The translations under genes and the position numbers were made by a program. This document shows, one piece after another, positions 7,713-40,194 of a stretch of 52,495 bases of DNA (position 1 is the first letter of the stretch; the number at the start of each line of letters is the position of its first letter). Source of the stretch: a phage. The stretch lies in assembly GCA_028879995.1 (NCBI GenBank), contig GCA_028879995.1_4895.1; one strand, written 5' to 3'. The notes under the pieces were generated by a model, which was given only the letters and a program-made list of their open reading frames with translations, did no database searches and was not told where the DNA came from.

Positions 7713-10669
7713 TGCACACGATGTTGCTTAAAGACGGATCAGACCATCGAGCTAATGTCGAAAGCCTTATCGAAGGTCACCACCATTTTCTTGAGCGCAA
7801 TACTGGCAGAACTGACGACGCTACGCGTCAGCACTATATCTTCAATCCAGAAGGAGTAGTGTCGAACAACCGCCATTTTATTGCACACACCATGATGGAG
7901 TATCAACCTAACGGTGATGCTCCGTCTGAAAGTCAGTCGCTGCTAATACTCGGCGAAATTCACGCGTACCTTGCTACTAAGGAACAGCGGTACCTTGACA
8001 AAGCAATTGAGTACTTCAATGCTTACGTCAAGTACTATTACGAGGGGGACCCAATCCCTGATACTCCTCGTCGCTGGATCGCTAACTGGCTTTGTAATGG
8101 CAAAGAGCCTGTGCTAGCCAGCTTCCCAATCAACCCTGATTCACCAACACAAGGCGGCTATAAAAATGTGCCAGTTAAATTTGTTAACGGCAAAGCACAA
8201 ATCCCTCATGGTTCTCCTTTCTGGGGCGAGTACCTGGATGTTGCTACTTGGGCCCACAGGGGACACATGGCTTGGCCTGCTATTAATGGTGGTGTCCGTG
8301 TTATTAAAAATAAAGTTGACTGGGACGATATTTACAACAATTATCGCATCACTACCATGCCAGCTGACCCGTGGAATCAGTTAGCCTGGATTGACTGGCC
8401 GAGGTATCTGGGTGAACCAAGCTACACTGTGGACTGGTCTGCTGCTGAACCTCCTGTACATCTCATCGAGTATATTGTTGCATGGACCAATAACAAGATT
8501 GGTGTTCTACCTGGCAAAAACGATGAGCTATGGGGAGGTGAGATTCTTGAGACTGGACTGCCTGATTCTCGCAGAGGTGAGATTCAACTCCGTGACCATA
8601 CTATCAACGGTGTGTACCTGCTTAACTATGCTGTTAAGCTTCCTGTTGAACACGGTGGTTATTTGCTTAAGCGAAATGAAGTATGGCACAACAGACCGGT
8701 AAACGTTCCATTGTACGGCGAGCTTCAACGCGGTAATGCTGCTGATGCTGAGTTGTGGTTCTGTGACTGCTGCTATATGCTGTGGCGAATTACTAACGAG
8801 CAAAAGTATTACAACGCTTGGCAAGCTGTCCTGTTTACACTGGAGGAGTATATTGACATCGATAAACAAGACCAGTTCTTCCGACAAGACACTCACGCGT
8901 CGTCTCCGTTTACTGATGGTATCTCTTATGATTGGTCTTATCCTGAACTGGCACAAGCTATATATTCACGTGATGAAAATGGTTATATAGTTCTGCGTCA
9001 GAACGAAAAAGCTCAATCATCTCTGGAGCAACAGGCTGTATGGTTTAAGTGTAAGCCAACAGCTAAGATACGTACAGAGGTCGGTGGCAAAGATGATGCT
9101 GGTCAGAATATCAGTGTCAAGGTGGAAATGTACATGAACCGTGAGAAGGTTGACGTCGAGCAAAACATCTATCGTTTTGTCACACAGCTACCTGCTCTTG
9201 GTGCTTCGCCTGCTAACTACGACATTCCGTTAAGCGATTTTGTCGCAGGTACTAAGCCAGACGGTTCTGAGTATATCTTAGCTGATATTCGTTCATCCAC
9301 TGATTATGGTAATGCCACTATTGCAGTGTCTTACCGTACTGACATACTCGACAACAGACGTGGCAACACTGTTCGTATGACTATACCTGATAGTTCGTCA
9401 GGTGCCATTATAGGCTTTTGGCTACTGGAATCTTCCCAGGCACCTTTAAACTCGCTGACGTATACTTCTACAGGTCCGTTGTGCATCAAAGTAACTGACG
9501 CGCAAGGCTGGAGCTGGGTACGTGATTTACCTGCCGCATCAGGCTGGGTAACTCAGCAGATTCGCACCTGGGAGTTCAGGCTGGCGTCATACCAGGAAAA
9601 CACAGGTACACCACCAGCTAGCCCACAATTCGGCGAGATTAAGCAGTTCTCGTTTGTACTGCCTGACGGCGTTAATACGTCGACAAGTATTAGCTGGTAC
9701 TGTGTGAATGATGTTCCGCCTCGCTATAACTGGCCAATTGGTTATACGATTAAGTATCGTCTTACTTTCTCGGCTGATAACCCGTACACAGCTAAGCTTG
9801 GCGACTGTACTGTGCTGGACTATGAGAATGATAACCTTGCTTACACGCCAGGTGTTATTCCGTTCTCCAACATTTATAACCCTGATTCTAAGCAGTTCGA
9901 TGGTTGGCACGGTATACCTTACCCTGGCTATCAGTATCCGTTTGTCTTTACGCATGACGATACTGCAGCAGGTACAATCAGGCTGAACAACATGGTTAAC
10001 TTTTTGTACGATTCTCAGCAATGGTACTTTAAGAAGTTTGGTCAGCTAGGTCCTGGCGCATCTGCTTTTATCTGGAACCGTTGGGATAACTTTAAATACG
10101 GTGTACCTGATACGTTTACCATGTATCACTGGGGTAATGGTAGTGCATGGTCAGGTTACCAGCCTCGTGCTTATTTCTCCGCAGCACGTGGATGGTATGA
10201 GCTAGTAAACCGTGGTAAGCCAGTTCCGAGTAAGCTTATTGCTTATGTGGATAACTGGTCAAAATGGTTGCTTGACTTCATGGAAAGGTCAGGAGGTGTG
10301 TCGCCTTCTAACTTCCCACAAGAAGGTGTTGCTCTGCCAGTCCCTTCAGACTTCACAGGTCACATGTGCGGACTATGGCTTGCTGGTGCAGCTATGTCAG
10401 CCCTTTGTGGGTCAATGGTATCAGGACTGGATAAGCTGATGGACATGCTTGTTAATGAACTGGAAGACCATTACGACATAACTGGTATTCCGGGGCATGT
10501 AATGGATGGTGGTTGGTCACCAGCGTTACGCCTTGAAACTGGTTCAGGACCTGAAAGCAACGCCATGTACTATGGTTTTTACTCTGGCGAAATATTACGA
10601 GGGTTGGGCTTATACCTGCTGTACAAAAACAAAGGGGCTAAAGCAGATATTTATGATTTAGGCCCGTAA
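7712..10669 (+). CDS. Large virion-associated protein, possible carbohydrate-active/receptor-interacting protein
   Basis: 985 aa, Trp/Tyr/Gly-rich; in the structural operon between neck genes and Ig-like proteins; function inferred from composition and position only. Confidence 0.3.
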   Translation: MHTMLLKDGSDHRANVESLIEGHHHFLERNTGRTDDATRQHYIFNPEGVVSNNRHFIAHTMMEYQPNGDAPSESQSLLILGEIHAYLATKEQRYLDKAIEYFNAYVKYYYEGDPIPDTPRRWIANWLCNGKEPVLASFPINPDSPTQGGYKNVPVKFVNGKAQIPHGSPFWGEYLDVATWAHRGHMAWPAINGGVRVIKNKVDWDDIYNNYRITTMPADPWNQLAWIDWPRYLGEPSYTVDWSAAEPPVHLIEYIVAWTNNKIGVLPGKNDELWGGEILETGLPDSRRGEIQLRDHTINGVYLLNYAVKLPVEHGGYLLKRNEVWHNRPVNVPLYGELQRGNAADAELWFCDCCYMLWRITNEQKYYNAWQAVLFTLEEYIDIDKQDQFFRQDTHASSPFTDGISYDWSYPELAQAIYSRDENGYIVLRQNEKAQSSLEQQAVWFKCKPTAKIRTEVGGKDDAGQNISVKVEMYMNREKVDVEQNIYRFVTQLPALGASPANYDIPLSDFVAGTKPDGSEYILADIRSSTDYGNATIAVSYRTDILDNRRGNTVRMTIPDSSSGAIIGFWLLESSQAPLNSLTYTSTGPLCIKVTDAQGWSWVRDLPAASGWVTQQIRTWEFRLASYQENTGTPPASPQFGEIKQFSFVLPDGVNTSTSISWYCVNDVPPRYNWPIGYTIKYRLTFSADNPYTAKLGDCTVLDYENDNLAYTPGVIPFSNIYNPDSKQFDGWHGIPYPGYQYPFVFTHDDTAAGTIRLNNMVNFLYDSQQWYFKKFGQLGPGASAFIWNRWDNFKYGVPDTFTMYHWGNGSAWSGYQPRAYFSAARGWYELVNRGKPVPSKLIAYVDNWSKWLLDFMERSGGVSPSNFPQEGVALPVPSDFTGHMCGLWLAGAAMSALCGSMVSGLDKLMDMLVNELEDHYDITGIPGHVMDGGWSPALRLETGSGPESNAMYYGFYSGEILRGLGLYLLYKNKGAKADIYDLGP

Positions 10670-31701: not shown

Positions 31702-31730
31702 ATTATACCACATCACTCTCTAGTGGTAAA
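31702..31730 (-). promoter_or_regulatory. sigma70-like promoter (minus) TTTACC-N17-TATAAT
   Basis: Plus-strand attata at 31702-31707 and ggtaaa at 31725-31730; spacer contains CCAC...GTGG inverted repeat. Confidence 0.55.
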
Positions 31731-31749
31731 GCACTTTTTACGCTTCTGG

Positions 31750-31783
31750 TAAAAATAAAAAGGACCAGCGTTAACTGGTCCTT
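31750..31783 (-). terminator. Intrinsic terminator (minus strand) ending the transcript from the 32870 promoter
   Basis: 8-bp stem AGGACCAG/CTGGTCCT followed on the minus strand by TTTTATTTTT. Confidence 0.65.
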
Positions 31784-32353
31784 TTGGCAGGGTGGCGTAA
31801 GGAGATACAAGGCATCGTAACTATGCAACCAGGCAGCGCATATGAGATTGGCCAAAAGACTTACCATTTTAATCCCCGCGACGAGACGAAAAAGGAGGTG
31901 TCATCGAGTAGCCAATCACATATGCGTTACTTGCTGTGTGCTCTCACCGCGGAAAGCATAGAGCGTTGCACTTATCACACCGATGGAGTGGCAAAAGCAC
32001 ACAGCAAGTACAACCTTAGTTGTGGTGTCTTAGCACCTGAGTTATTGTGGATAACCTGCACCCGACGGGTGTCAAAAAGATACGCCAAAACACCACAACT
32101 AAAATTATGACCGCCGTCTACACCAGGCGCCTGGGGTCAAGGTAGCGAGCCAATACCCTTTTCAGCGTCGGAGGAATCGAACCTCACACATCACGGCTTT
32201 TACCAAATCTCGGTCAGCGAGCAGAATTGAACTGCATTCACTGGACACCCTCACTGTTTCAACACACCAGGCTTAATTGATTGTTGATAAGAAGAGAGAT
32301 GTAAGGATGTCCATTGAATGCACCTCCGTAGAGGTGCGTTCAGATCAGCGCTA

Positions 32354-32821
32354 TTATTCAGCAACTTCTTCGTTGTCGCCTTCGATCGCGCCAGCCAGTT
32401 TAGCAGCTTCAGCTTTAGCAGCTTCTGCTTTCTGGCGAGCTTTTTCAGCTTTCTCTTCAGCTTTGCGGATCTGCTCAGCAGCTTTCGCTTCGGCTTTTTC
32501 AGCTTTGATGCGAGCACGCTCTTCAGCTTTACGCTGTTTTTCAGCGGCTTTAGCAGCATCGCGTTCTGCTTTAGCGGTATCAACACGCTTAGCCAGAACT
32601 TTACCAGTGGCTTTACGCCAGTAGGTCAGCTGGGAAGAAACAGTACCACGGGACATTTCGGTAGTGGCAACAACTTCGTCCATAACGTCAGAGCTGGACT
32701 TGCCTTCTTCATGGGCTTTATCAGCCAGGTCCCATACGTAACGTGCGCCAGTACCAGCTGCCGGATACAGTACGCCGTTAACTTCTTCTTTACCAGTTAC
32801 AAAAGTCAGTTTCTCGCTCAT
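32354..32821 (-). CDS. Lys/Ala/Glu-repeat protein, possible histone-like DNA-binding protein
   Basis: ATG 32821 with RBS GAGGA; C-terminal 80 aa are AKAAEK/KAEE repeats; promoter 32870-32898 upstream. Confidence 0.4.
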   Translation of the reverse strand: MSEKLTFVTGKEEVNGVLYPAAGTGARYVWDLADKAHEEGKSSSDVMDEVVATTEMSRGTVSSQLTYWRKATGKVLAKRVDTAKAERDAAKAAEKQRKAEERARIKAEKAEAKAAEQIRKAEEKAEKARQKAEAAKAEAAKLAGAIEGDNEEVAE

Positions 32822-32869: not shown

Positions 32870-32898
32870 AATATACGTCATTTAAAAGAGTGTGTAAA
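32870..32898 (-). promoter_or_regulatory. sigma70-like promoter (minus) TTTACA-N17-TATATT
   Basis: Upstream of the Lys/Ala/Glu-repeat protein gene. Confidence 0.45.
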
Positions 32899-33155: not shown

Positions 33156-34806
33156 TTCCCCAGTCGTAGTTCATGATTTGTGGGTAGGGTCGTTTAATCC
33201 ATACCTTGATGCGCTTAGGAATAGCTAGCTCACCCTTACGGCGAATAAACTCATCGCATGTTTCAGGCGGTTCTGTTCCTGCAGCATTACGCCACCAGGC
33301 GTCTGCCATTTGCTTAGCATTACCATGGGCCTCTATATTTACCCATGTTGTATACACTTCCAGGTTTGAGTAGTACACAACCTTTATACTGTCAGGTCGT
33401 CCCTGCTTCTGGAATAAAGAATAGTTTACCAGCGTAACATCTTTATCCACAACACGAAGCTGACCGTTAGTCATTACCTCTTCTTCTGATGAAGTGAAGG
33501 CAATAGCAGGTCCGTTAACTGTAAACTCAAACTCATGCCCGCACATCGGATATACTCCATTCTCGTCTGGCGTACTTCCTTTAGCCGGATGCTTACACGT
33601 ACGAGCAGCATAGCCGCTTACCTGGTGGCAGATAGGACACTCTTTACCGCCAGGTGTTTTCTCTGACCGTTTCTTTTTCTTCTTACCAAGACGTGGCGGA
33701 ACAGCCGGGTCGTCAATAGGTCCAAGGTCAATGGTGTTAGACGTAAAGTCCATAACAAGACAGTCATGCTTGCCAGGCGCTGTACGTAATCCTCGACCGA
33801 GTATCTGCACCCACAAAGCAACAGACTTGGACGGGCGCAAGATGCCGAGCATATCAATCTCAGGATAGTCAAATCCTGTCGTCAATACGTTTACGTTTAC
33901 ACAGACCCGTGCTCGTCCGCTTGTAAACTCTTCCAGTGCGGCTTCACGTTCTTTCTTTGTAAGACCGCCATGCACAACTACAGTCTGCCAACCTCGCAGA
34001 TTAAACTCGTCTGCTATGTTGTGGGCGTGCTCAACACTTGTGGCAAATACAAGAACGTGGTTCCTGTCTTTACCGTAGTGCATCATCTCACGAATAGCCG
34101 CGACTGTTATACTATGTTGGTTGGCTACCTTCTCAAGCTCTGACGGGATGTAGTCACCCATCCTTTCACCAACATTACTGGTGTCAATCTTGGTTAACAC
34201 TTTCTTGTTGACCAGGCGTGACAGGAAGCCTTCATTTACCAACCTGGTGAATGCGTCAGGTGTTGTAAGGTCATAGCAGATGTCGGTAAATATACCACAG
34301 TCCAGCAAGTGGCCACCTGCAAGGCGATATGGAGTTGCTGTGAGTCCTGTTACCTTTACCTTAGGATTAAGCTCTTTGAAGTGAGCAATAACCTTACGGT
34401 ATGTTGTTTCAGACTTCTCAGGAACAAGATGGGCTTCGTCAATGAATATAAGATTAAACTTACCTGCTTCTTCCAGGTTCTTAATAATTGACTGTACCGA
34501 TGCTACAACGATACGGCCTGAAAAGTCTTTATGTCCTGCACCTGAAGAGTATATTGATACTGGTGCTTGTGGCCAGTGACGAACAATCGCTTTGGCGTCT
34601 TGTTCAACCAGCTCCTTGACGTGAGTCAGTATAAGAATACGCTGACGTGGATAGCTGGTAAGAATATCCTTCATCAGCATACCAAGCACAGGTGATTTGC
34701 CTGAACCTGTTGGCATGACAATAAGTGGGTTACCACTATAAGAATTGAAGTACGACCACCAAGCTGTGACCGCTTCTTGTTGATACCAGCGAGCTTCAAA
34801 AGCCAT
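33136..34806 (-). CDS. SF2 DEAD/DEAH-box helicase with C-terminal Cys-rich domain
   Basis: Walker A MPTGSGKS, DEAH (FIDEAHL), LTATPYR, TTGFDYPE, QILGRGLR; C-terminal CPICH...C...C cluster. Confidence 0.8.
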   Translation of the reverse strand: MAFEARWYQQEAVTAWWSYFNSYSGNPLIVMPTGSGKSPVLGMLMKDILTSYPRQRILILTHVKELVEQDAKAIVRHWPQAPVSIYSSGAGHKDFSGRIVVASVQSIIKNLEEAGKFNLIFIDEAHLVPEKSETTYRKVIAHFKELNPKVKVTGLTATPYRLAGGHLLDCGIFTDICYDLTTPDAFTRLVNEGFLSRLVNKKVLTKIDTSNVGERMGDYIPSELEKVANQHSITVAAIREMMHYGKDRNHVLVFATSVEHAHNIADEFNLRGWQTVVVHGGLTKKEREAALEEFTSGRARVCVNVNVLTTGFDYPEIDMLGILRPSKSVALWVQILGRGLRTAPGKHDCLVMDFTSNTIDLGPIDDPAVPPRLGKKKKKRSEKTPGGKECPICHQVSGYAARTCKHPAKGSTPDENGVYPMCGHEFEFTVNGPAIAFTSSEEEVMTNGQLRVVDKDVTLVNYSLFQKQGRPDSIKVVYYSNLEVYTTWVNIEAHGNAKQMADAWWRNAAGTEPPETCDEFIRRKGELAIPKRIKVWIKRPYPQIMNYDWGNGYGAR

Positions 34807-39907: not shown

Positions 39908-40194
39908 TTACGTTTACCTTTACGTTTGTGTAGCGGAGTATATGTTTTCTTCGGTACGCCGAACATGGCCGCATATGTACCGACTTCTTTCTTTGTTGGC
40001 TTATCCACAATCTCGTCAATCACGATTAAGTCATGGTTGATATTGCGAAAGACTTCAGCTGCTCTTTTCTCAACAGGAGTAAAGTCAATAACCAGCTCTT
40101 TGCCTATCAGGCTTTCTTTGAACTTGTCAAATAGCCATTTGTCACGCGGACCAGGATTGCCAATAAACATAACACGCACCTGCTTATTGTCCAT
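39904..40194 (-). CDS. Hypothetical protein
   Basis: 96 aa, basic C-terminus (KRKGKRK). Confidence 0.4.
   Translation of the reverse strand: MDNKQVRVMFIGNPGPRDKWLFDKFKESLIGKELVIDFTPVEKRAAEVFRNINHDLIVIDEIVDKPTKKEVGTYAAMFGVPKKTYTPLHKRKGKRK

Follow-up and report, generated by a model that had tools for sequence, protein, structure and literature searches.

Comparative analysis of the window, by which we mean the whole 52,495-nt stretch of DNA studied here, indicates that positions 31786–32353, read on the minus strand, are a selected, highly structured non-coding RNA locus, and that this locus occupies the tRNA-gene slot of related phages. Identity and synteny identify the window as Salmonella phage BP63 (Rosemountvirus). 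The structured region runs from the gp59 stop codon (32354–32356) to a conserved intrinsic terminator. We regard it as reasonably probable that the region is a selected structured RNA in the tRNA slot, that it carries a tRNA-like module belonging to a wider family, and that it is a 3′ extension of gp59 processed to a stable tRNA mimic. We infer that its function would be that of a processed, stable tRNA-mimic RNA.

In the 5′-to-3′ direction of the minus strand, the RNA region contains P1, a long P2, a tRNA-like module of ~135 nt, hairpins A, B and C of ~20 bp each, a tail and the terminator. The features of the locus, all on the minus strand, are as follows.

32870–32898, minus: sigma-70-type promoter-like site, TTTACA-17-TATATT (promoter scan; KM366099 annotates a promoter too)
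32354–32821, minus: gp59 (BP63_59), Lys/Ala/Glu-repeat protein gene directly before the RNA region (annotation)
32320–32337, minus: P1, 7-bp hairpin with a UACG or UUCG tetraloop, beginning 16 nt past the gp59 stop
32236–32319, minus: P2, long hairpin with a basal helix AUUCA/UGAAU and a 13-bp upper helix (folds)
32107–32241, minus: tRNA-like module, ~135 nt; its 5′ core matches covariance model R1 at 32197–32242
32221–32235, minus: T-arm-like hairpin 1, GCAG-UUCAAUU-CUGC, after a semi-conserved GAAUG
32212–32220, minus: invariant linker UCGCU (32216–32220), then the helix H 5′ strand GACC (32212–32215)
32197–32211, minus: GAG-A-UU-UGGUAAAAG, an invariant GAG and then a D-loop-like GG motif without a local stem (alignment)
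32171–32185, minus: T-arm-like hairpin 2, GAGG-UUCGAUU-CCUC, containing GGTTCGATTCC
32128–32167, minus: hairpin c, lineage-specific, with a conserved apical loop CUCGCUA
32108–32118, minus: 3′ box GACGGCGGUCA, whose GGUC (32109–32112) is the helix H 3′ strand
32013–32105, minus: hairpin A, ~22-bp stem with a three-way apical junction
31925–32012, minus: hairpin B, ~20-bp stem on CUGUGUG/CACACAG
31838–31925, minus: hairpin C, 23-nt imperfect inverted repeat with CACCUCCUU (31892–31900) in its loop
31786–31837, minus: pyrimidine-rich 3′ tail with a conserved CUCCUUG motif (alignments)
31751–31785, minus: intrinsic terminator, 12-bp stem then T run TTTTTATTTTT, kept in all clades
31702–31730, minus: promoter of the next transcription unit (gp57 onward), at the end of the RNA locus (scan, alignment)

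Borders and coding potential of the locus

The annotated gene neighbours are a helicase, gp60, gp59, gp57, a MazG-like pyrophosphatase, thymidylate synthase and polymerase subunits, and a gap of ~600 nt is retained at the same place in Rosemountvirus, Loughboroughvirus and the KE25/fHy-Eco03 clade. The gp59 protein belongs to PHROG 28664, a PHROG of unknown function, has no match in a Pfam domain search, and keeps 82–85% amino-acid identity in all clades. A promoter scan finds a promoter-like site at exactly 32870–32898, where a preliminary description of this DNA had placed a promoter, and no other minus-strand promoter-like site between there and the terminator; this site is presumably the transcript start for gp59 and the entire structured region. 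The strong terminator described at 31750–31783 exists, with its borders corrected to 31751–31785, and combines a GC-rich hairpin with a U run, as expected of an intrinsic terminator. A read-through transcript from 32870–32898 to the terminator, as proposed in the preliminary description, would fit both scans. A candidate promoter within hairpin A (TTGACA ... TATCCA) was rejected; its spacing, counted by hand from alignments, is 16 versus 19 between clades, and the promoter scan is silent there.

The gene-less stretch described at 31790–32353 is real: it contains no conserved ORF, neither a tRNA nor a tmRNA is called in it, and Rfam has no match. This largest non-coding stretch of these phages was previously left blank or filled with spurious ORFs. 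The sole CDS annotated here in BP63 is BP63_58 (31703–31867), the frame of which crosses the terminator and the next promoter, and other GenBank records place mutually incompatible sets of tiny ORFs in the region. KE24, vB_SenM-1 and S144, for example, are annotated with three to five ORFs of 29–66 codons. To read the region as several micro-ORFs on the strength of such records, including the BP63 record with its BP63_58, is hardly credible: no ORF is common to different records, the BP63_58 ATG is lost in five relatives, inter-clade indels have lengths that are not multiples of three, and substitutions keep base pairing rather than a reading frame.

Selection, strand and the scaffold hairpins

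The region is conserved above the synonymous sites of its flanking genes. Specifically, BP63 and ZCSE2 share 82.5% identity over 432 nt of the region, with ~60-nt blocks at 100%, whereas the four-fold sites of the flanking genes are 54–68% identical; for BP63 versus KE25, four-fold identity is 24–68%, and the gp57 protein is 45% identical. The minus-strand RNA of the region folds at −237 kcal/mol, as compared with −175 ± 5.8 in shuffles (z = −10.7). The plus strand gives z = −6.6 and is 35 kcal/mol less stable than the minus strand.

The long hairpins are maintained by compensatory changes. The hairpin GCACCTC/GAGGTGC of the preliminary description, our P1, is present at exactly 32320–32337; that description overlooked the main features, namely four more long inverted repeats and a second T-arm-like hairpin (32221–32235). 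P1 has counterparts at the same place in phage SOI901 (GCCCCUC/GAGGGGC) and metagenome contig L141 (GUCCCU/AGGGGC). The upper helix of P2 is paired in 97.7% of cells, has four pairs with changes on both sides and retains a U·G wobble in 10 of 10 sequences; none of 500 shuffles reaches its score, a statistic that, like the other shuffle statistics given below, is inflated by the phylogenetic relatedness of the compared sequences. The P2 apical loop has a conserved GCCUGGUGYGUUG (32260–32272). Among the 29 pairs of hairpin A, 11 are variable yet paired, and six of them show double compensatory changes; in the KE25 clade this hairpin is at a different position. Hairpin B is also found 3′ of the tRNAs in SOI901 and L141, and hairpin C is restricted to Rosemountvirus, being absent in the ZCSE2 clade.

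The conservation above synonymous sites, the compensatory changes and the invariant U·G wobbles together indicate that the region most likely acts as RNA. With the strand specificity of the G·U wobbles and a core that belongs to a wider RNA family, they lend good support to the non-coding RNA that the preliminary description had offered as one option.

An alternative that acts at the DNA level, in which inverted repeats or cruciforms serve as a replication origin or DnaA site and transcription is incidental or activating, appears unlikely. The locus does lie between helicase and polymerase/nucleotide-metabolism genes, it contains five long inverted repeats, other members of the module family lie in replication or recombination modules, and the apical arm of hairpin A (GUUAU-CCACA-AUAAC) holds a perfect DnaA box, TTATCCACA (32046–32054), invariant in three clades. 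However, wobble pairing in hairpin A is confined to one strand, with 30 G·U cells versus two A·C cells, and the invariant U·G pairs and the 35 kcal/mol advantage of the minus strand point the same way. In addition, the DnaA box is the single exact one in the region and forms no cluster, SOI901 and L141 have none in the region read by eye, and neither iterons nor an AT-rich unwinding element came to notice in passing. Cumulative GC skew turns at ~26 kb, not at 32 kb, and many family members lie inside tRNA arrays.

The same hairpins could act purely in cis, as a 3′ UTR that just stabilises gp59 mRNA or regulates it through RNase III, with no trans-acting RNA. P1 and P2 begin just 16 nt past the gp59 stop, and the P1/P2/hairpin B/terminator scaffold flanks real tRNAs in SOI901 and L141, where it would protect the mRNA after tRNA excision. 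Stems of at least 20 bp are RNase III-type substrates, and the region contains such stems. A cis role of this kind leaves the invariant unpaired nucleotides unexplained, as it does the presence of the module without gp59 in ~30 unrelated contigs, and we consider it improbable as the full account. It is probably true for P1 and P2, and there it is compatible with the processed tRNA mimic that we favour.

The tRNA-like module and its relatives in other phages

The module is the sole copy in the window of a sequence recognized by covariance model R1 (67.5 bits, E = 4e-16). It consists of GAAUG, T-arm-like hairpin 1, UCGCU, the helix H 5′ strand, GAG with the D-loop-like UGGUAAR, T-arm-like hairpin 2, a variable hairpin and the helix H 3′ strand, in this order. 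Two hairpins, at 32221–32235 (with a 4-bp stem) and 32171–32185, have a 7-nt loop of the T-Ψ-C-R-A type and a closure equivalent to G53–C61, the invariant closing pair of the tRNA T arm. In T-arm-like hairpin 1, all cells are paired in 21 sequences, three of the four pairs change on both sides (13 cells), none of 500 shuffles matches this, and the loop-closing G–C pair is present in 21 of 21 sequences. T-arm-like hairpin 2 is present in 25 of 31 family members, 3–20 nt 3′ of the GG motif; its loop reads U-U-N-R-A, and 22 different stems occur. The stem is CUGGG/CCCAG in the ZCSE2 clade and GCCUG/CAGGC in the KE25 clade. The preliminary description had rightly drawn attention to a T-arm-like minus-strand sequence, GGTTCGATTCC, which we locate at 32173–32183, inside hairpin GAGG-TTCGATT-CCTC.

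Helix H joins the two ends of the module. Its strands occur as GACC/GGUC, AACU/AGUU, AACC/GGUU, CAUC/GAUG, UACC/GGUA, UGCC/GGCA and GGCC/GGCU. All four pairs are 100% paired with changes on both sides, and none of 500 shuffles matches; the 3′ strands in variant members were chosen by eye, and we estimate p ~0.014 from the counts of an unbiased window test. Hairpin c changes from CGCUG/CAG(G)CG in BP63 to CGCCA/UGGCG in ZCSE2, two double changes, and its loop CUCGCUA is carried by other stems in KE25 and L172. Its 3′ strand is part of the 12-bp palindrome CCAGGCGCCTGG, which is present at 32123–32134, one base from the 32124–32135 reported before. A C at the sixth base of T-loop 1 associates with an inserted G before UGG (8/2/2/16, Fisher p = 5e-4, uncorrected for phylogeny), a C–G covariation that may reflect a contact of T-loop 1 with the GG loop.

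Two further pairings were considered and rejected. A YrlA-like T-AS-D topology, with UCG-CUGAC-CGA as a mini acceptor-like hairpin, fails as the four bases after UCGCU covary with the distant 3′ box. A closing helix between GCGCU of the 5′ leader and GGCGC of the palindrome, proposed by RNAalifold, is not kept in the KE25 clade. The module alone is no more stable than shuffles (z ~0 to +1), so a module-only stability test is uninformative; many tRNAs likewise fold no better than shuffled sequence.

The module recurs in ~30 unrelated phage contigs, giving ~31 members, on sequences that range from 5-kb fragments to a 412-kb contig; L150 and L153 are examples of compact members, of 105 nt. It usually lies a few bases past a tRNA gene: it is found 1–11 nt downstream of a tRNA gene in tRNA arrays, or else in early replication/recombination modules. 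Members in arrays directly follow a tRNA on the same strand (L053, L150, L153, L155, L156 and L159–L165), the tRNA being tRNA-Gln, tRNA-Ser or tRNA-Phe, and in Rhizobium phage RHph_N38 the order is tRNA-Pro, tRNA-Gln, module. Model R1 scores 52–68 bits on training members, 40–60 bits on eight non-training members, and at most 17 bits on chance loci and T4. Since the members were found by exact-match patterns, the apparent invariance of UCGCU and GAG is partly a search effect. A scan with the bare 14-mer gave mostly chance matches, and 19 of 135 pooled core matches had a flanking T-loop and GGNAAA. By our reading of ORF translations, the neighbours of the members are diverse (RecT, a YqaJ-like exonuclease, replication proteins, terminase, or only tRNAs), with no shared protein partner.

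A search for relatives with the flanking protein returned just the four isolates from IMG/VR and one new contig from a metagenome scan. When 5,426 E. coli genomes were searched by BLAST with the region, the sole matches were two phage genomes mislabelled as plasmids, and no host homologue was seen. A literature search found no description of the element, although it could be present, unnamed, among the 10,006 candidate viral structured RNAs catalogued in PMC10690425. The module family is absent from Rfam and apparently undescribed.

The tRNA slot and the proposed function

In SOI901 and L141, tRNA-Pro(UGG) and tRNA-Gln(UUG) lie between the same P2 and hairpin B, and the same tools call both genes. 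In our set, ARAGORN calls no gene in the window, ZCSE2, SE4, KE25, fHy-Eco03, SE1_KM, renfri, SE13 or rivia. The tRNA model RF00005 has no match in the region and its relatives even at E ≤ 10, and neither ARAGORN, which calls tmRNA too, nor RF00023 finds a tmRNA in the window. Rfam searches of the whole window at gathering thresholds, and of the region and its relatives at E ≤ 10, give only noise, namely miRNA-like matches on the long hairpins and terminator look-alikes. The ARAGORN and Infernal/Rfam scans proposed in the preliminary description thus both return nothing; this cannot count as a refutation of an RNA, since those libraries lack the family.

The slot raises the possibility that the region is a neutral remnant, a decaying, functionless tRNA-Pro/tRNA-Gln mini-cluster. 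Intact tRNA-Pro and tRNA-Gln in the slot of SOI901 and L141 suggest this, as do the empty ARAGORN results for BP63, ZCSE2 and KE25 and the resemblance of T-arm 1 and the next bases to the T arm and 3′ end of tRNA-Pro. Phage rivia, a viable natural isolate and the sister phage of renfri, furthermore tolerates a 145-nt deletion (32057–32201) in which most of the module and one half of hairpin A are lost; barring an assembly error in the rivia record, the phage can thus do without the element in culture. Against decay stand conservation well above the synonymous rate, helices maintained by compensatory changes, the gap length retained in three clades, and the same module beside intact tRNAs in unrelated phages. 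We consider this account largely refuted and very improbable. Comparison with relatives therefore gave a divided answer to the preliminary description: two relatives do carry intact tRNAs in the slot, which it had taken as the mark of a pseudogene, but the BP63 sequence is under purifying selection. Its "decayed gene or tRNA" option finds no support in that form, because the sequence is selected and the module adjoins intact tRNAs in unrelated phages, from which we conclude that the module is an element in its own right and no tRNA in decay.

The module shares with tRNA and tmRNA the T-arm hairpins with a U-U-N-R-A T-loop and a closing G–C pair. In tmRNA, a stem-less D-loop analogue follows the 5′ strand of the terminal helix, and the UGGUA after the helix H 5′ strand resembles this arrangement. 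Unlike these RNAs, the module has two T arms, no anticodon arm, CCA or tag ORF, and a terminal helix of 4–5 bp versus the 7-bp acceptor stem. Consistent with this, tRNA finders detect no cloverleaf with an anticodon arm in the module, a 7-bp acceptor stem with NCCA is absent, and no CCA follows the 3′ strand of helix H.

The YrlA RNA offers another comparison. This tRNA mimic has a canonical T arm, a GG-containing D element and ends that pair, but lacks an anticodon loop, and it occurs in phages, near tRNAs (PMC4201824; bioRxiv 10.1101/312249). Salmonella encodes Rsr and YrlA (PMC4201824; bioRxiv 10.1101/312249). The region might accordingly be a YrlA-type Y RNA, in which a tRNA-like effector and a Ro60/Rsr-binding stem would hijack the host Rsr–PNPase RNA decay, and L151 carries an exact match, GUCGAAUG, to the Ro-binding motif GNCGAAN0-1G just 5′ of T-arm 1. 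This match occurs in one of ~31 members; L053 and L155 have AACGAAU, and BP63 has GUGAAUG. In addition, YrlA has the order T arm, closed acceptor stem-loop, D stem-loop, whereas in the module the covarying helix after T-arm 1 is long-range, encloses the D-like loop and the second T arm, and comes with no D stem. The YrlA model RF02553 has no match at E ≤ 10 on the module of any tested member (BP63, ZCSE2, KE25, L153, L154, L155 and L156). A YrlA gene would be expected within ~4 kb of a Ro60/Rsr (TROVE) gene on the same strand. A domain scan of ten large ORFs and the four flanking proteins, a set that left out three annotated ORFs of at least 330 aa (two polymerase subunits and the helicase), showed no TROVE domain, and the genes annotated nearby encode a helicase, polymerase subunits and thymidylate synthase. 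A relationship to YrlA is therefore quite unlikely.

The closest analogues of the module are RNA C and RNA D of phage T4 (the species 1 and 2 stable RNAs, rnaC/rnaD), whose biological roles are unknown (PMC3014915). Like rnaC and rnaD, which start 1–6 nt past a tRNA or each other, the family lies in phage tRNA clusters on the same strand. The T4 rnaC ends in the T-arm-like CCGGG-UUCGAAU-CCCGG, and rnaD begins with AAUG and has a hairpin loop GUCGCUA. However, R1 gives at most 12.3 bits on T4 68–76 kb, BLAST finds no match in T4, and rnaD ends in CCA, which the BP63 module lacks. The BP63 copy also differs from T4 in having no tRNA neighbours and in being embedded in a 570-nt multi-hairpin RNA. 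In MALAT1 mascRNA, the MHV68 TMERs (tRNA-miRNA) and the E. coli RtT RNA downstream of tyrT, a tRNA-like element and a hairpin RNA share one transcript, an arrangement in which tRNA-processing enzymes can define the ends. Unlike the module, these systems are eukaryotic, herpesviral or host-chromosomal, and they have no sequence relationship to it. Rfam, which presumably includes an RtT family, gave no match.

In the explanation that we favour, the region would be transcribed as a 3′ extension of the gp59 mRNA and cut by host enzymes that process tRNA or double-stranded RNA, such as RNase P, RNase E or Z, and RNase III. P1 and P2 would stay on the gp59 mRNA as a protective 3′ end, and the module would be freed as a stable small RNA. 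The module has T-loops and a GG loop, but it cannot decode, as it lacks both an anticodon arm and a CCA end. Most likely, it would present a tRNA-elbow-like surface and bind, titrate or recruit a factor that recognises tRNA shape, and may thus be a functional cousin of T4 RNA C/RNA D.

More speculatively, and in our estimate rather doubtfully, the module could be the founding example of a widespread, unnamed class of tRNA-array RNAs that are counterparts of T4 RNA C/D and act as decoy, inhibitor or recruiter for a tRNA-shape factor. Candidate targets of such a mimic would be a tRNA-cleaving anti-phage nuclease, RNase P, a T-loop-modifying enzyme or the elbow-binding sites of the ribosome. On this scenario, Rosemount- and Loughboroughviruses would have lost the tRNAs, kept the mimic and elaborated it with RNase III-type hairpins; if so, the mimic and not the tRNAs would be the slot's selected cargo.

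The host phages are Salmonella/E. coli biocontrol candidates reported with "no tRNA genes" (PMC7432712, PMC9343928). With the module family, the old question why additional stable RNAs, T4 RNA C/D among them, are found in phage tRNA clusters gains a concrete, testable case. The family also bears on the debate over the purpose of phage tRNA arrays, codon usage or counter-defence; codon usage cannot explain why, at this locus, a tRNA-like RNA has outlasted the real tRNAs. In practical terms, the analysis yields a covariance model and coordinates for annotation, and in rivia a natural deletion mutant.

Sequence context and absence of coding content

The stretch, the minus-strand segment 31786–32353 between gp59 and a terminator, lies within 701 bases that match Salmonella phage BP63 (type species of Rosemountvirus) at 100% identity and about 45 further Salmonella and Escherichia phages at 94–99%. 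It belongs to the early and replication arm of BP63, on the minus strand, in the gene order helicase, gp60, gp59 (Lys/Ala/Glu-repeat protein), stretch, terminator, promoter, gp57, MazG-like pyrophosphatase, thymidylate synthase and polymerase subunits.

Features of the stretch in BP63
32320–32337, minus: hairpin P1
32236–32319, minus: hairpin P2
32107–32241, minus: tRNA-like module
32221–32235, minus: T-arm 1
32216–32220, minus: UCGCU
32212–32215, minus: H5′, 5′ strand of the long-range helix H
32197–32211, minus: GAG plus the D-loop-like GG loop
32171–32185, minus: T-arm 2
32128–32167, minus: hairpin c (loop CUCGCUA)
32109–32112, minus: H3′, 3′ strand of helix H
32013–32105, minus: hairpin A
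31925–32012, minus: hairpin B
31838–31925, minus: hairpin C
31786–31837, minus: tail
31751–31785, minus: terminator

All elements listed in a preliminary description are found in the sequence: the hairpin (32320–32337), the T-arm-like GGTTCGATTCC (32173–32183, minus strand), the upstream promoter-like site (32870–32898), the terminator (31751–31785) and the palindrome, which lies at 32123–32134, one base off the position reported. A promoter scan found no minus-strand promoter-like sites inside the stretch.

The same description saw no convincing gene here, which is borne out by unconserved ORFs and non-triplet indels. Specifically, the sole CDS annotated in the stretch in BP63, BP63_58 (31703–31867, minus), lacks its ATG in five close relatives (renfri, SE13, vB_SenM-1, AV127 and rivia), and its frame crosses the terminator and the next promoter; the annotation is probably spurious. 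Other GenBank records carry mutually incompatible sets of micro-ORFs, and the clades differ by many 1- and 2-nt indels, indicating that the stretch is non-coding.

A selected RNA structure read from the minus strand

The minus-strand RNA of the stretch folds at −237 kcal/mol, compared with −175 ± 5.8 kcal/mol for dinucleotide shuffles (z = −10.7); the plus strand reaches −201.8 kcal/mol (z = −6.6), and the counterpart stretches of ZCSE2 and KE25 give z = −6.6 and −7.1 against shuffles. Seven inverted repeats are present, four with 15–23-nt arms, where one hairpin and one palindrome had been noticed before. A 590–680-nt non-coding gap occupies the same position in three clades, namely Rosemountvirus, Loughboroughvirus (ZCSE2, SE4, S144) and KE25/fHy-Eco03/SE1_KM. 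BP63 and ZCSE2 share 82.5% identity in the first 432 nt, including about 60 consecutive nt without a difference, whereas the four-fold degenerate sites of the three flanking genes are just 54–68% identical. Likewise, the non-coding blocks of BP63 and KE25 align at about 80–100%, whereas gp57 shows 45% protein identity and 24% identity at four-fold sites. The stretch is thus better conserved than the four-fold sites of its flanking genes, indicating purifying selection.

The paired regions covary. In the P2 upper helix (ten sequences, five clades), 97.7% of cells are paired, four pairs are changed on both sides, and none of 500 shuffles reaches the observed covariation, although the relatedness of the sequences inflates significance in this and the other shuffle tests. 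One U·G wobble is present in 10 of 10 sequences and a second in 8 of 10; since these would be A·C mismatches on the opposite strand, they point to pairing at the RNA level, on the minus strand. Hairpin A comprises 29 pairs, 11 variable yet paired and six with double compensatory changes, and its cells include 30 G·U versus two A·C. The cumulative GC skew has its turning point near 26 kb, at the switch of transcription direction, and none at 32 kb. Judged from these patterns, the stretch is predicted to act as RNA rather than DNA, from the minus strand, and is very probably a functional structured RNA.

A DnaA-type origin was considered and rejected, given the single exact DnaA box in the stretch, the GC skew and the strand-asymmetric pairing. 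The consensus DnaA box TTATCCACA occurs in four exact copies in the window, at 10246–10254(−), 32046–32054(−), 33443–33451(+) and 40001–40009(+), versus about 0.4 expected by chance (our own estimate); with one mismatch, there are 24 sites versus 13.7 expected, a count that 1 of 100 shuffles reached. The box at 32046 is located at the tip of hairpin A and does not vary across three clades.

Several parts differ in placement between clades. In BP63 and ZCSE2, hairpin A with its DnaA-box arm follows the module on the 3′ side (window 32013–32105); in the KE25/fHy-Eco03/SE1_KM clade (L007/L008/L009, ~1626–1724), P2 precedes it and T-arm 1 follows it. It is best read as a movable cassette. The GAAUG 5′ of T-arm 1 is the 3′ strand of the P2 basal helix in BP63 and of the relocated hairpin A in KE25, and by inspection can pair with the 3′ tail in compact family members, so that T-arm 1 is always preceded by a helix. 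The P2 apical motif GCCUGGUGYGUUG (32260–32272, minus) is conserved in three clades; in Erwinia phage SOI901 it sits in the loop of a hairpin 3′ of the tRNAs (L140, ~2262–2275), indicating that the loop motif moves between hairpins. The hairpin C loop contains CACCUCCUU (31892–31900, minus), which corresponds to nine bases of the 16S rRNA 3′ end (anti-Shine-Dalgarno region) and is conserved within Rosemountvirus only; a shorter motif, CUCCUUG, is kept in the 3′ tail across all clades.

The tRNA-like family and its genomic slot

The best-conserved block, T-arm-like hairpin 1 together with UCGCUGACCGAGA, was used as scan query and matched Rosemount and Loughborough isolates and unrelated metagenomic viral contigs; BLAST added two Rhizobium N4-like phages, and a looser pattern eight more contigs. 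Members, collected by exact-match patterns that bias the apparent invariance of motifs, share the order RAAUG, T-arm 1 (4–5-bp stem, loop UUCRANU), UCGCU, four-base H5′, GAG-N-UU-(N)-UGG(U/A)AAR, usually a second T arm 3–20 nt on, variable hairpins, a 3′ box ending in the complement of H5′, and an A/U-rich tail. T-arm 1 is 100% paired in 21 sequences, with three of four pairs changing on both sides (0/500 shuffles match). Helix H, for which the 3′ boxes of variant members were chosen by context, has all four pairs always paired and all four changing on both sides (GACC/GGUC, AACU/AGUU, AACC/GGUU, CAUC/GAUG, UACC/GGUA, UGCC/GGCA, GGCC/GGCU; 0/500 shuffles match); a naive window test recovers the Watson-Crick complement for six of seven variants versus a chance of about 0.38 each (p ~0.014, our own binomial estimate). 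Of 31 members, 25 have T-arm 2, on 22 different stems and with a conserved T-loop. In T-loop 1, C at position six tends to occur with an extra G ahead of UGG (8/2/2/16; Fisher p = 5e-4, with no correction for phylogeny), a covariation that hints at a contact like that forming the tRNA elbow.

A covariance model (R1) built on the 46-nt core, with rough E-values, scores training members at 52–68 bits and eight held-out members at 40–60 bits. All other sequences scored, among them about 100 chance loci and the T4 tRNA region, stay at 17 bits or less; the window contains exactly one copy, at 32197–32242. The core is, with good confidence, a member of a real, unannotated tRNA-like family. An otherwise unrelated contig, L172 (IMGVR_UViG_3300045988_135134), carries within its module (~1700–1720) GUGCUUCGCUACCAUGGAC, the hairpin-c loop block of the KE25 clade, which shows that hairpin c also occurs outside the Salmonella phages.

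In at least 14 contigs the module begins 1–11 nt 3′ of a tRNA gene on the same strand: tRNA-Gln (L053, L153, L155, RHph_N38), tRNA-Ser(UGA) (L159–L165), tRNA-Phe (L150) or tRNA-Met (L170), often with a further tRNA directly 3′. The remaining members lie within early recombination or replication modules, and no common protein neighbour was found among members outside tRNA arrays.

Searches with gp57 brought up SOI901 and L141, a metagenome contig of 53.9 kb, as distant relatives (about 41% identity). Both carry gp59, P1, P2, a hairpin B equivalent, the CUCCUUG tail and the same terminator, with P1 and P2 covarying with the BP63 versions, and both hold intact tRNA-Pro(UGG) and tRNA-Gln(UUG) between P2 and hairpin B. 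RHph_N38 has the same two tRNAs, followed by the module. The earlier suggestion of a decayed gene or tRNA is not borne out in its original form: relatives do have intact tRNAs in this slot, which the preliminary description named as the sign of a pseudogene remnant, but BP63 is not simply a decayed copy, since its core belongs to the wider family. The most economical history would be an ancestral array of tRNA-Pro, tRNA-Gln and module, of which SOI901 and L141 kept the tRNAs and BP63, ZCSE2 and KE25 the module. Recombination between lineages may also account for the pattern, because gp59 (32354–32821, minus) is uniformly 82–85% identical across clades, unlike adjoining gp57 (43–45%), a contrast that suggests mosaic exchange or strong constraint. 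gp59 has no Pfam match and falls in PHROG 28664 (unknown function); its homologue is labelled virion-associated in the fHy-Eco03 record. The terminator and next promoter (AAAAAGTGCTTTACC...TATAAT; window 31702–31750) are conserved near base-for-base in all relatives, including SOI901 and L141, despite a flanking protein only about 40% identical.

Proposed working and known systems

Located in a tRNA slot and delimited by a terminator, the stretch forms an RNA structure that is under selection and uses tRNA-type building blocks. Its transcription would start at the gp59 promoter, and the enzymes that process tRNA arrays and double-stranded RNA would then cut the transcript, leaving P1 and P2 on the mRNA as a 3′ cap, a role that would be needed in SOI901 after tRNA excision, while the module would persist as a stable small RNA. 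The module has T-loops and the GG loop and lacks an anticodon arm, a 7-bp acceptor stem and CCA, and thus cannot be a decoder. Its most likely activity would be to mimic the tRNA elbow or T-arm surface towards a tRNA-recognising factor, a mechanism we put forward tentatively. Phage rivia (MT074438), a viable isolate, has a natural 145-nt deletion (window 32057–32201) between GGT direct repeats, which takes out the GG loop, T-arm 2, hairpin c, H3′ and the 5′ half of hairpin A; if the record is correct, the element is accessory, not essential, which fits a host-interaction or counter-defence role.

The module belongs with tRNA-like or tRNA-array-associated phage RNAs; it is neither a tRNA nor a tmRNA. 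The closest match in concept is T4 RNA C/RNA D, which lie 1 nt after tRNA-Arg and 6 nt apart in the T4 tRNA cluster, contain tRNA-like pieces and have unknown biological roles (PMC3014915). No homology was detectable by BLAST or by the R1 covariance model on the T4 tRNA region. T4 rnaD (L174, 3054–3172, minus) starts with AAUG directly 3′ of the tRNA-Arg CCA and has a hairpin, ACCGG-GUCGCUA-CCGGU, followed by AAG, recalling the AAUG, UCGCU and GGUAAG of the family and the hairpin c loop CUCGCUA; the resemblance may be coincidental, as the covariance model gives no score. The closest match in structure is the YrlA Y RNA, a permuted tRNA mimic (PMC4201824; bioRxiv 10.1101/312249). The topology differs in that helix H is long-range, and the Rfam YrlA model gives no match, so this identity was rejected. 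No Ro60 gene was found among four flanking proteins and ten large ORFs, and the Ro-binding motif occurs in one family member only.

Rfam 15 has no family matching the module, and no description of its motif was found in the literature, though an unnamed entry may exist in a catalogue of predicted viral structured RNAs (PMC10690425). The S144 study and a Rosemountvirus genome announcement describe phages without tRNA genes and do not discuss the stretch (PMC7432712, PMC9343928). Four database records appear, from their sequences, to be mislabelled Rosemountvirus genomes or contigs: 'Listeria phage' PP583539 (99% identical to these Salmonella phages across a ~700-nt query), the E. coli 'plasmids' NZ_JBVNBN010000003.1 and NZ_CP067310.1 (52.8 and 53.5 kb; 573-nt query covered at 98.6% and 94.4% identity), and the 'Bacillota MAG' contig JAEWER010000021.1 (~99% match to a 681-nt region).
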